Assembly (NCBI GenBank): GCA_038061615.1
Contig: JBBTYY010000063.1
Location: 1-39,296 of the forward strand
From: Patescibacteria group bacterium
Lineage (GTDB): Bacteria > Patescibacteriota > Microgenomatia > Levybacterales > UBA12049
Direction: 5' to 3'
DNA length: 39,296 nucleotides
Shown here: piece after piece, positions 13,107 to 17,206 of the stretch
Layout of the letters: each line of letters begins with the position of its first letter
Numbering within the stretch: the stretch's first letter is position 1
The notes under the pieces: model-generated
Told to the model about the DNA's origin: nothing
Databases searched by the model: none
What the model saw: only the letters and a program-made list of their open reading frames with translations
Made by a program: the position numbers and the translations under genes

Positions 13107-14342
13107 TTACATTTGCTTAAATGCGTTTAAAAATGTGTTCTCCCAAGTGCTATTTTTTGCAAAAAGCATAGCACTTCTTCTCAATTTCAAATATAAATTA
13201 GCATCGTTAAAAATTTTTACAATAGCATTCGCAAAGCTTTTTGAATTATCATTTGCTATGATTGCTCCTCCTATTTTTTCTACTTCTCTTCCTAAGGGTG
13301 GTACATGTGAGCTTATAACTGGCAATCCGGAAGCACAGTATGCTCTAATTTTACCAGCATCAGCATAATGTCTTACTGAACCCGGAATATCCCTATAAGG
13401 CGCAAGCCCTACTGCACACTTTCTAATTAACTTAGACATTTCTATACTACTTGAAACAAATCCGTAAAAAATAACTGACTTTTCTAATGTATTTTTTTTA
13501 ATAATTTTTTTTAACCACGTTGTTTCCTTTTCAATTCCCCCAATTACATGCAAGTTAGCATCCGGGAACTTTTGCTTAACTAAAGCTAAAGCTTCAATTG
13601 CCACATCCGGTCCGTTTTCCTGACCTAATGTCCCCATATAGACCATGGAATGTTTGTCAATTTCCGAAACTGGGCTCGCTTTAATTTGGCTTGGATATAA
13701 ACCATTGGGAACATTAATTACAGGAGCGGATTTTGTAGAATCAAGGCCTGCTTTAATGCGCGCCGGCTGCATTGCTTTTGAAACGTCCCAAATATAGTCA
13801 ACGTGAACTGCGCAAAACCGGTCAAGAGCAAGATATAGCCAATTAAACCACTTATTTGGATATCTATTTGGCGAATAATCAGAAACATAATATACTACTT
13901 TTCTCACTCTCCCAATTTTTCGCAAGAGAATACCCGCAATAGTATTTACACTTTCTAAACCGATAAAATAATCAAAATGTGTTTTATCTCTAAATGACCA
14001 GTCTATCACTGATAAAAAATCCCTAATCTTAAATCTAATTTGAGTATTTTCTGAATGAGACATTTCTAATAATGGTTTCAACCAATAAACAAAAATAGAA
14101 GAATTATGCGTTTTAAATTTCATATTGTTGTTACGATATTCTTCTATTTTAGGCATTACTCCATGGCTACCTGGATGGAGTTGATCAATTATTACTAATT
14201 TTTTTACTCGTGGAACTAAAAAATCTCTTAAAGGCTCTATGCTTCCATTTGTCGGTAAACGCTTGTTATCTATCCATTTGGAAAATGTAGCAAATAACAC
14301 AGAGGAATTATTTGATAATGGGGTTTTATTCTTTTTTGTCAT
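13107..14342 (-). CDS. divergent GT-B (GT4-like) glycosyltransferase, paralogue of 411..1574
   Basis: GT-B C-terminal domain (LHVIGG...VIFYGFV...GLPVISSH). The canonical EX7E motif is replaced by HYADAGKIRAYCASG. The start overlaps the upstream SDR gene by 17 nt. Confidence 0.7.
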   Translation of the reverse strand: MTKKNKTPLSNNSSVLFATFSKWIDNKRLPTNGSIEPLRDFLVPRVKKLVIIDQLHPGSHGVMPKIEEYRNNNMKFKTHNSSIFVYWLKPLLEMSHSENTQIRFKIRDFLSVIDWSFRDKTHFDYFIGLESVNTIAGILLRKIGRVRKVVYYVSDYSPNRYPNKWFNWLYLALDRFCAVHVDYIWDVSKAMQPARIKAGLDSTKSAPVINVPNGLYPSQIKASPVSEIDKHSMVYMGTLGQENGPDVAIEALALVKQKFPDANLHVIGGIEKETTWLKKIIKKNTLEKSVIFYGFVSSSIEMSKLIRKCAVGLAPYRDIPGSVRHYADAGKIRAYCASGLPVISSHVPPLGREVEKIGGAIIANDNSKSFANAIVKIFNDANLYLKLRRSAMLFAKNSTWENTFLNAFKQM

Positions 14343-15153
14343 TCTTTAATATTTCTTTTGCCTGGTTAACTATTTTTTGAATACCGTCTTTTAGTTCAAT
14401 ACTTGGAAGCCAGCCAGGCACCCTCCCCATATTATCTGCAGGTAAAGGATCGTGTCCTTTTATTTTACCAGGAATTAATTTAGCCCCTGTTGAATCAGAA
14501 ATTATTTGCGCAATATCAATTATTCTAACCCATTCGTAACTACTGGCATCATAGACAGTTTTTCGTAAATCTTTTGTATTTAAAGCCATATAGAAAGCAT
14601 TACAAAGGTCATTGATATGGGTAAACTGACGCCATTCTTGTCCGTTTGTCATCATTGTGATTTTACCTGTTTGTAAAGCCTGATAAATAAAATCAGATAT
14701 TACATGACTTTTAATATCCTGTTCTTCCATTACTCCGTAAGCATTCCAGACCCTAACGCAAACGCCTTTAAGCAAATTTGTCCAAACTTCTCCTAATCTT
14801 TTAGTTGAACCATATACTGTATCTGCCTCTTCTGTTAATTGGCTTGAAACAAAAAGAAAATCTGTCTTTTTTTGCTCTTCCAACTGATTAAATATATTAG
14901 TAATTAAAGCCAAATTCCATTTTAATTGAGACATTTGAAGTTTAGGTTCGTAGAGATATTTTGAACCTCCTACGTCCCAGGCGAGAAAATAAATTTTATC
15001 TATCTTCTTAAAATCGAACTTAAAAAACCTTCCGTCCTCTTTTTCATTTTGTTTAATATCAAAGCGAATTGCTTTTTCTTGTTTGTTTTCTAAATATTTA
15101 CAAAAAGGCTTGCCTATAAAGCCTTCTGAACCAATAACTAAATTTGTAATCAT
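14326..15153 (-). CDS. short extended-SDR NAD(P)-dependent sugar epimerase/reductase
   Basis: VIGSEGFIGKPF (GxxGxxG) and YGSTK (YxxxK). 275 aa. It lies 15 nt downstream of the GME-like gene. Confidence 0.75.
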   Translation of the reverse strand: MITNLVIGSEGFIGKPFCKYLENKQEKAIRFDIKQNEKEDGRFFKFDFKKIDKIYFLAWDVGGSKYLYEPKLQMSQLKWNLALITNIFNQLEEQKKTDFLFVSSQLTEEADTVYGSTKRLGEVWTNLLKGVCVRVWNAYGVMEEQDIKSHVISDFIYQALQTGKITMMTNGQEWRQFTHINDLCNAFYMALNTKDLRKTVYDASSYEWVRIIDIAQIISDSTGAKLIPGKIKGHDPLPADNMGRVPGWLPSIELKDGIQKIVNQAKEILKNDKKE

Positions 15154-15168
15154 ATAAAATTGTGGAGA

Positions 15169-16143
15169 TTATTTACCGGACTTATGTACCTGTTTATCAA
15201 TCCAAGCGTAAGTTTTTTCTAATCCGTTATATAAAAGTGTAGTAGGCTTCCAACCAAGTTTTTTTTGAATTAATTTATTATCCGATTTTCTGCCCCTAAC
15301 TCCTTGCGGTCCTTTAATATGCTTAATTTTTAATTTCTTTCCTGCTATTTTCATAACCATTCTTGCTAATTCATTTATGGAAACCATTTCTTCCGAACCA
15401 ATATTAACAGGGCCTGTAAAACTAGAATTCATAAGTCTTCGTACTCCTTCAAGACATTCATCAATATATAAAAAACTTCTTGTTTGCTTTCCATCTCCCC
15501 ACATATCTATCACTCCATTATTTTTTGCTTCTGCTACTTTCCTACAAATTGCCGCAGGCGCTTTTTCTTTTCCGCCTTTCCAAGTTCCTTCCGAACCGAA
15601 TATATTATGAAATCTTGCTATTCTTACCTTTAACCCAAAATTTTTATAGTATGCCAAATATAATCTTTCGCTAAAAATCTTCTCCCAGCCATATTCACTA
15701 TCAGGCGCTGCCGGATATGCAGATTCTTCTGAAAGTTTAGGATTTTTTGTATCCATCTGATTATATTCTGGATAAATACAAGCAGAAGATGAATAAAATA
15801 TTTTATCTGATTTTGAATACATCATTGCTTCTAAAACATTTAAATTAATGAGCGCGCTATTATGCATAATATTTGCATCGTTATCTCCTGTAAAAATGTA
15901 GCCCGCCCCTCCCATATCTGCTGCTAATTGATAAACTTCGTCAAATTTTTTATTAAAAACTTTTTTAACAAATAATTGATTTCTTAAATCTCCGAGGATA
16001 AATTCATCCGCTTCCGATTTAGAATACTCCGGTTTTTTTAAATCAACCCCCCTAACCCAAAATCCTTCTTTTTTAAGTTTTTTAACCAAATGGCTTCCAA
16101 TAAATCCTCCTGCCCCTAAAACTAATGCTTTTCCCCTATTCAT
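15169..16143 (-). CDS. GDP-mannose 3,5-epimerase-like extended SDR
   Basis: Near-colinear match, from memory, to plant GME. Shared strings are GAGGFIGSH, LAADMGGAGYI, SSSACIYPEY (catalytic Cys), YGWEK (YxxxK), RFHNIFG..GTWKGGKEKAPAAICRK, MWGDGKQTRSF.YIDECLEGV, PVNIGSEEMVSINE and GPQGVRGRKSDN.LI.KKLGW. Confidence 0.8.
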   Translation of the reverse strand: MNRGKALVLGAGGFIGSHLVKKLKKEGFWVRGVDLKKPEYSKSEADEFILGDLRNQLFVKKVFNKKFDEVYQLAADMGGAGYIFTGDNDANIMHNSALINLNVLEAMMYSKSDKIFYSSSACIYPEYNQMDTKNPKLSEESAYPAAPDSEYGWEKIFSERLYLAYYKNFGLKVRIARFHNIFGSEGTWKGGKEKAPAAICRKVAEAKNNGVIDMWGDGKQTRSFLYIDECLEGVRRLMNSSFTGPVNIGSEEMVSINELARMVMKIAGKKLKIKHIKGPQGVRGRKSDNKLIQKKLGWKPTTLLYNGLEKTYAWIDKQVHKSGK

Positions 16144-16261
16144 ATTTTAAAACTAGATGTAAGTAATTTAACATATTTTTCTAAAACTTAAAAGACTTTT
16201 CATTAAACATACTTGTCGCAAGACTGTAAATTAAATCAATTATAAATAAAATATTTTTTAT

Positions 16262-17206
16262 CTAAAGCATGACCTTATTAAAATAATCCTTATACCAAAC
16301 AAGTGTTTTTTTAAGACCCGCGTCCAATGCGTACCCTGGCTTCCAAGCAAGAATACGACTTGCTTTTTTAGATGATAGATATTGAACAGTAATTTCGTTT
16401 GATCTTTTTTTATTAAGAATTTTAATAGAAAGATTGGCTCCGGATAAATCAATAATTTTTTCAATTAAATCTTTTACTGAAATCAAATTTCCTGTTCCAA
16501 AATTATAAATTCTATTTCTCTCCACCAATTTTTTATCAAGTTTTCCAAGGCTCACATATGCATCTATAGCGTCATCTATATAGATATAATCTCTCATGGC
16601 GCTTCCACCCCACATTTCAGGACTCTTACCATTAAGAACATTTTTTATAGTTTTTGGTATCAATCTGTTAAGATTTAAATCTCCAGGTCCATAAATATTA
16701 ACAAACCTAGGTATTAGTACAGGTAAATTAAAACTGTCTGCATAAGATTGTGCCAGTAAATCTGTGCATGCTTTTGACGTCTCATACGGTCTGGACGGAC
16801 GCGGAGTATATTCTTCTAGATAGGGGACAGGATTATCTCCATACACATGAGCTGTTGAAGCTATAATGATTTTTTCTAAATTATTTTTTCTGGCAATTTC
16901 TAGAATATTTAACGTGCCCTCTATGTTTACCTTGAAAGTTTCAAAAGGACGACTTTGTCCCTCCTCAACCAGAGATTCGCCTGCAAGGTGATAACAAATT
17001 TGAATCTTTTTATCTTTTATAAACTTATCTATTTCTTTATAGTTAAGTACATCTGCTTTAAGAATTTTATTTCCATCTCCAGATGATTTTGAAATCCCAA
17101 AAACTATTACCCCTAAGAAGCTTAAACGTTTTTCAAGAGCCTTACCTATAAATCCATTTATCCCTGTTATTAAAATTCTTTTATTTTTAAAATCGCTATC
17201 TTTCAT
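16262..17206 (-). CDS. NAD-dependent epimerase/dehydratase family protein (extended SDR)
   Basis: ILITGINGFIGKAL, STAHVYG, PYETSKACTD (YxxxK) and RFVNIYGPGD. It lacks the TDE motif typical of 4,6-dehydratases, so an epimerase or reductase is more likely. Confidence 0.75.
   Translation of the reverse strand: MKDSDFKNKRILITGINGFIGKALEKRLSFLGVIVFGISKSSGDGNKILKADVLNYKEIDKFIKDKKIQICYHLAGESLVEEGQSRPFETFKVNIEGTLNILEIARKNNLEKIIIASTAHVYGDNPVPYLEEYTPRPSRPYETSKACTDLLAQSYADSFNLPVLIPRFVNIYGPGDLNLNRLIPKTIKNVLNGKSPEMWGGSAMRDYIYIDDAIDAYVSLGKLDKKLVERNRIYNFGTGNLISVKDLIEKIIDLSGANLSIKILNKKRSNEITVQYLSSKKASRILAWKPGYALDAGLKKTLVWYKDYFNKVML

Follow-up and report, generated by a model that had tools for sequence, protein, structure and literature searches.

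The window analyzed here, a stretch of 39,296 nucleotides, consists almost wholly of minus-strand genes for glycan biosynthesis. These encode GT2 and GT4 glycosyltransferases, PMT_2/GT-C-like membrane proteins and a Wzx-type flippase, together with a DegT aminotransferase, hexapeptide acyltransferases, methyltransferases, an RmlC-like cupin and four SDRs. Neither a tRNA nor an Rfam element was found in the window. Among the glycan genes lies that of an ortholog of GDP-mannose 3,5-epimerase (GME, also GM35E, EC 5.1.3.18), which is followed by the genes of a 275-residue extended SDR (SDR275) and of a GT4-type glycosyltransferase (GT4_411), as listed in Table 1.

Table 1. The three genes of the GME cassette and the promoter-like site upstream of them
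Feature	Position	Strand	Description
Promoter-like site	16239..16266	(-)	TTTAGA, 16 nt spacer, TATAAT; 10/12 matches
GME ortholog (GDP-mannose 3,5-epimerase, GM35E)	15169..16143	(-)	324 aa, ATG start
SDR275, extended SDR	14326..15153	(-)	275 aa; starts 15 nt after the GME stop
GT4_411, GT4-type (GT-B) glycosyltransferase	13107..14342	(-)	411 aa; start overlaps the SDR275 stop by 17 nt

The gap upstream of the GME gene measures 118 nt (16144-16261) and is among the few real intergenic spaces in this string of genes. The promoter-like site, assigned to this gap, may be taken as a weak lead to the start of a transcript specific to the cassette; the scan for promoters and terminators returned 22 sites versus a mean of 21.6 for shuffled sequence, which is no excess. 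No Shine-Dalgarno-like sequence was found before the GME start codon. Two plus-strand ORFs within the GME gene (15377..15610 and 15480..15674) were rejected as shadow ORFs, since they lie opposite a strongly conserved gene. Just upstream of GME, a 314-residue SDR (16262-17206) resembles a 4,6-dehydratase or 4-epimerase and scores under all curated cut-offs. It has a 65%-identical paralog adjoining a GT2 (C15:39510-40454), and homologs with 50-56% identity are located upstream of GME in several related loci.

Assignment of the 324-residue protein to the GME family

The earlier note on this DNA, made from the sequence alone, had described the protein as almost colinear with plant GME and had quoted seven blocks common to both. 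All seven are present in the ORF, with the relative positions that are expected: SSSACIYPE at residue 118, YGWEK at 151, GTWKGGKEKAPAAICRK at 186, MWGDGKQTRSF at 214, IDECLEGV at 227, PVNIGSEEMVS at 245, and GVRGRKSDN at 281. The colinearity was found to be real when all PDB chains were searched with phmmer. The top match is the plant enzyme AtGME (PDB 2C59 and its mutants), with an E-value of 8.5e-101 and 341 bits, and residues 5-322 of the query align to residues 31-345 of AtGME in a single colinear stretch with only three short gaps and 53% identity over 313 aligned positions. GME from Myrciaria dubia (8SG0) follows with 332 bits (E = 5e-98). The other SDR classes reach at most 99 bits, with UDP-xylose synthase as the next class that is not GME (99 bits, E = 4e-27), GalE-like proteins at approximately 98 bits and GMER at approximately 80 bits. 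Given that this next class reaches only E = 4e-27, the match to AtGME is far beyond chance, and the search against characterized GMEs that had been proposed as a check thus bears out the assignment.

Profile libraries are less specific for this protein. Pfam returned only the generic Epimerase (PF01370, E = 5.9e-40) and GDP_Man_Dehyd domains. The best NCBIfam match is the Fcl model NF047922, with 121 bits versus a cut-off of 500, in a library that has no GME equivalog and is therefore unable to confirm membership. Many homologs with 74-80% identity carry the JGI name GDP-D-mannose 3',5'-epimerase. The AF2 model of the protein is poor (pLDDT 65.6), given that the alignment supplied was shallow and consisted of sequences with 73-86% identity. 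A Foldseek search with this poor model placed 14 GME chains first (E of approximately 1e-27, TM 0.63, rmsd of approximately 11 Å), with seven orders of magnitude between the GME chains and GalE.

The residues that define GM35E are, in AtGME numbering, S143, C145, Y174, K178, N203, K217, R243, and R306 (PMC8787198). S143, Y174 and K178 form the triad, which follows the pattern [ST]xnYx3K, Cys145 and Lys217 are the acid/base couple, Arg306 acidifies the cysteine, and Arg243 contacts the diphosphate, with Asn203 completing the set; in GMER, the base lysine is replaced by a histidine and the arginine that acidifies the cysteine by a lysine, and GalE has neither the acid nor the base (PMC8787198). 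In the HMMER alignment to AtGME, all eight residues are identical in the window protein, where they correspond to the triad S120/Y151/K155, the acid/base pair C122/K194, the cysteine-acidifying R285, the diphosphate-binding R222 and the orange-wall asparagine N180. The catalytic Cys, Tyr and Lys, whose positions the earlier note had wanted confirmed by alignment, therefore match those of AtGME (C122, Y151, and K155 versus C145, Y174, and K178). The eight positions are invariant, save in one truncated sequence, across an alignment of 84 sequences that comprises 82 distinct orthologs from other genomes, the window protein and AtGME. The NAD+ motif G10-A-G-G-F-I-G16 with D34 is kept in 83 of these 84 sequences.

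A paralog in the same genome (C15:34253-35230) serves as a control for this discrimination. It is 35% identical to the GME protein, keeps the cysteine and has a histidine at the position of Lys194, and its best match is the GDP-L-fucose synthase 7LL6 (E = 2.7e-54), with 227 bits to NF047922. Given that this paralog displays the Cys/His signature, it supports the distinction between GME and GMER. The paralog itself, with 325 residues, carries GME-like motifs (SSACVYP, YGWAK, QTRAFLYVEDF, and RRNSDN) and an NAD-type aspartate after beta-2 (VLDN), and its score to the Fcl model is under the cut-off of 500 bits. Possible identities are an atypical fucose synthase and a 3,5-epimerase of another type.

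In a quick maximum-likelihood tree, the 83 prokaryotic orthologs, including the window protein, form the sister group of AtGME, with moderate support (SH-aLRT 82-93). The GMER-like pair, three divergent GME-like proteins and the other SDRs of the genome all fall outside the GME group. These three divergent proteins, found in three relatives (G021, G032, and G007; L012, L013, and L014), have 39-44% identity and keep the Cys/Lys/Arg set, while in two of them a threonine replaces the orange-wall asparagine (N180). They may constitute a functionally distinct subfamily.

Compared with AtGME (PDB 2C59, 2C54, 2C5A, and 2C5E), the window protein is by its sequence likewise an extended SDR with the NAD+ motif, is colinear and shares the eight defining residues. 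It differs in lacking the plant N-terminal (approximately 28 residues) and C-terminal (approximately 30 residues) extensions, in its glycine motif, which is GxxGxxG versus GxxGxxA in AtGME, and in its predicted role, which would be the synthesis of an envelope glycan rather than that of ascorbate or the cell wall. A characterized bacterial counterpart is MfGM35E from Methylacidiphilum fumariolicum SolV, which is approximately 50% identical to the plant enzyme (PMC6678494). It is a self-sufficient bacterial GME of similar size whose Cys/Lys/Arg set, by the account of the paper, is the same, and its presumed role lies in the synthesis of an envelope polysaccharide (LPS); it differs in that it comes from a thermoacidophile and no linked short SDR has been reported for it (PMC6678494). 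GMER/Fcl (PDB 1BSV and 7LL6) has the same NS-SDR fold, a cysteine acid and a 3,5-epimerization on a GDP-4-keto sugar. It uses, however, a histidine base, a lysine acidifier, NADPH and a 4-keto-6-deoxy substrate, and its net reaction is a reduction, whereas the corresponding residues of the window protein are Lys194 and Arg285, and its score to GMER is only approximately 80 bits.

Proposed reaction and supply of GDP-mannose

Judged by its sequence, the ORF very probably encodes a functional GDP-mannose 3,5-epimerase with the mode of action of AtGME. The mechanism proposed for it is carried over from the structural and mutagenesis work on AtGME as summarized in PMC8787198. NAD+ would be held tightly in the Rossmann fold (GAGGFIG, Asp34), and Tyr151, together with Lys155 and Ser120, would oxidize the C4-OH of GDP-alpha-D-mannose to give a 4-keto intermediate. 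Cys122, as a thiolate stabilized by Arg285, and Lys194 would act from opposite faces to remove and re-add the protons of C5 and C3, and the bound NADH would re-reduce C4. The products would be GDP-beta-L-galactose (the 3,5-epimer) and GDP-beta-L-gulose (the 5-epimer), possibly with minor GDP-D-altrose, and they would be used by the translationally coupled SDR275 and GT4, which would make up one branch of a large surface-glycan locus that varies between strains. The equilibrium of GME favors GDP-mannose, both in AtGME and in MfGM35E, and the coupled downstream enzymes would therefore plausibly pull the reaction forward.

The GDP-mannose would be supplied by a ManC-type guanylyltransferase and a PMM/PGM, both of which were looked for in the genome (0.88 Mb in 70 contigs, 89% complete) as the earlier note had recommended. 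A ManC-like gene and a PMM/PGM candidate were indeed found. The ManC-type protein, encoded on contig C65, has 359 residues, matches TIGR01479 in its guanylyltransferase portion (positions 4-356, E = 2e-67), and also matches the mannose-1-phosphate guanylyltransferase of Thermotoga (2X5S, E = 1.6e-41). The PMM/PGM candidate is PgmG-like and scores 403 bits, which is under the cut-off of 600 bits. ManC is present in 55 of 61 genomes of the order, including all the GME-positive ones, and given that it is nearly universal there, its co-occurrence with GME does not discriminate. Neither phosphomannose isomerase type I (PF20511) nor type II (PF01050) was found in the 89%-complete genome; mannose-6-phosphate could come from a bifunctional PGI/PMI, from uptake, or from a gene located in the missing 11%. 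[quoted passage not shown] The GMD gene lies directly after that of a GMD-like SDR of 338 residues, possibly a reductase of the Rmd type (C66:11444-13445).

The GME-SDR275-GT4 cassette and the sugar of the glycan

The three genes GME, SDR275 and GT4 recur with order and strand unchanged in 10 distinct loci selected by their GME. In these loci, the SDR is 69-85% and the GT4 58-73% identical to that of the window, and all 10 fall within one 16-member clade of the GME tree. The same arrangement is reached from the other side, given that three divergent SDR275 homologs (63-66% identity), drawn from the most divergent among the matches listed, all have GME directly upstream and a GT4_411 homolog directly downstream. 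The genes of the loci reached from SDR275 are separated by 3-10 bp, and two of these loci have a GT4 that is duplicated or fused to a GT2. These two GT4_411 homologs (L108:2779-6312 and L110:5825-8113) are fused behind a GT2 domain and located directly after GME and the short SDR, and one of them contains two tandem GT4 copies in a protein of 1177 residues. A member of the short-SDR family with 35% identity is encoded 2-3 kb downstream of GME in two loci of the Saccharibacteria type. Approximately 70 of the 82 GME ortholog loci have no SDR275 nearby, and a search of 400 genomes sampled from the phylum returned no SDR275. Its 763 database homologs carry generic names only.

SDR275 is 26% identical to GME. 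Its invariant positions include the GxxGxxG motif (GSEGFIG in the window protein), Asp32 of the NAD type, Ser104/Tyr114/Lys118, Asn137, Arg175, which is the diphosphate arginine, and K148-S149-H150. In the hhalign alignment with the GMER-like protein of the genome, KSHVI of SDR275 stands opposite YSHVI, which places His150 at the position of the histidine base of GMER and hence at that of Lys194 in GME. Leu106 occupies the position of the cysteine, and the loop that follows is deleted. The confident AF2 model (pLDDT 89) matches the folds of UXS, GalE, GME and GMER equally well in Foldseek (TM 0.7-0.8), and a PDB profile search is equally unspecific; given that these matches do not discriminate, no reaction can be assigned. 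SDR275 is a probable second sugar-nucleotide step, and the product of GME and SDR275 is probably transferred by GT4_411.

From the GME locus, L-galactose or L-gulose is a plausible constituent of the glycan. Nonetheless, SDR275 may modify the GME product, and the sugar of the final glycan therefore need not be plain L-galactose or L-gulose. That SDR275 acts on the GME product is tentatively proposed. GME would then be the first half of a two-enzyme pathway, a doubtful reading in which SDR275 makes another GDP-L-hexose or selects one of the two GME products. In one version, no less doubtful, the outcome would be, for example, GDP-L-galactose or GDP-L-gulose epimerized at C4 or C2, which GT4 would transfer, such that no plain L-galactose or L-gulose enters the glycan from this locus. 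The conserved order and strand of the trio, both in the 10 loci selected by GME and in the three of three reached from SDR275, argue for this pathway, as do the spacing of the window genes (15 nt apart, then a 17-nt overlap), the 35%-identical short SDR downstream of GME in the Saccharibacteria-type loci, and a family of 763 homologs that has only generic names. The Ser/Tyr/Lys triad, Asp32, Arg175 and the invariant His150 are likewise intact, which makes SDR275 look catalytically active. Against the pathway stands the fact that in approximately 70 of the 82 loci GME occurs without a nearby SDR275 and so does not need it. The fold of SDR275, which fits UXS, GalE, GME and GMER alike, does not favor the pathway either, and the enzyme could use another nucleotide sugar or the acceptor. 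A joint reading of the locus, more possible than probable, is that GME, SDR275 and GT4 form a dedicated three-step module that makes an undescribed GDP-L-hexose, which GT4 would install on the envelope. The carriers of such a module would be, on this same unsure footing, Microgenomates-type Patescibacteria and a few other uncultivated bacteria. Speculative candidates for the SDR275 product are GDP-L-glucose, GDP-L-allose, or a 2-epimer. The conserved cassette is the only element here that could lead to new biochemistry.

A GME-like epimerase that acts on another substrate (GDP-glucose, GDP-heptose, or another NDP-hexose), or that performs a single C5 or C3 epimerization, is improbable. Some homologs may be promiscuous or epimerize only C3 or only C5 (PMC8787198), product ratio and sugar specificity are not readable from sequence, and the relatives do have divergent GME-like proteins of 39-44% identity, two of them with threonine in place of N180. 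The window protein is, however, 53% identical to AtGME, its substrate contacts named in the review are identical (R222 at the diphosphate, N180, and S120), the tree places it with the plant GME clade and not with the divergent proteins, and the genome makes GDP-mannose.

The least tenable alternative is a misread member of a neighboring SDR class (GMER, UDP-glucose 4-epimerase, or UDP-xylose synthase), which the Fcl model as best NCBIfam match (121 bits) and the generic Pfam domains would allow, but which is refuted at the sequence level by a Fcl score far under 500 bits, by a base that is Lys194 and not His and an acidifier that is Arg285 and not Lys, by the Cys/Lys pair that GalE lacks together with 79 bits versus a cut-off of 262 for TIGR01179 (GalE), by 341 bits to GME versus 80-99 bits to GMER, GalE and UXS in the PDB, and by a separate GMER-like Cys/His protein in the same genome.

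Distribution and significance of GME in Patescibacteria

The statement in the earlier note that prokaryotic members of the family are few is outdated. In 2011, 43 bacterial and two archaeal close homologs were counted by Yin et al. (PMC3220709), and UniProt contained 18 bacterial entries in 2019 (PMC6678494), while database homologs now number in the thousands. A word-indexed search returned at least 8000 database matches to GME and at least 100 clusters at 73-90% identity, and an exhaustive search returned 1010 representatives of 50%-identity clusters at E <= 1e-30. In a scan of species-representative genomes, 313 close relatives with approximately 70% identity were found, distributed over Nitrospirota, Planctomycetota, Bacteroidota, Ignavibacteriota, Acidobacteriota, Thermodesulfobacteriota, Chloroflexota, and Patescibacteria, as well as two archaeal lineages. 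That these members are sparsely characterized, as the note also said, still holds, given that MfGM35E is the only bacterial one that has been characterized biochemically (PMC6678494).

Some of the homologs are fused to other domains. In P0241 (665 residues), a NodZ-like domain of the fucosyltransferase type is fused at the C-terminus, which fits, as circumstantial evidence, an L-galacto-configured GDP donor in the GME family. In P0244 and P0304 (687 and 845 residues), a UDP-glucose/GDP-mannose 6-dehydrogenase is fused at the N-terminus of the GME homolog, which hints that GDP-uronic acids may be epimerized in some lineages.

Closer to the genome analyzed, GME is a rare accessory gene. Orthologs with at least 71% identity are present in four of 60 near relatives and in none of the three genomes of the same genus, and GME was found in seven of 400 genomes sampled evenly across the phylum. 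The GC content of the window is 31.4%, versus 35.7% for the genome. The low GC of the window and the rarity of GME in the lineage fit a variable surface-glycan island, one that seems to differ between strains and was possibly acquired by horizontal transfer.

As a GME, the 324-residue protein is ordinary, and it adds to a known and widespread enzyme family of which one bacterial member is already characterized. It is a further enzyme from which activated L-galactose or L-gulose is predicted to arise, and biocatalysis has a demand for mesophilic bacterial GMEs in the synthesis of L-sugars (PMC8787198). The larger potential value lies in its partner SDR275, which would catalyze a new nucleotide-sugar reaction if it acts on GDP-L-galactose or GDP-L-gulose. 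The protein also suggests that rare L-hexoses are part of the envelope decoration in some Patescibacteria, and such an envelope would bear on the interaction of these episymbionts with their hosts and with phages.
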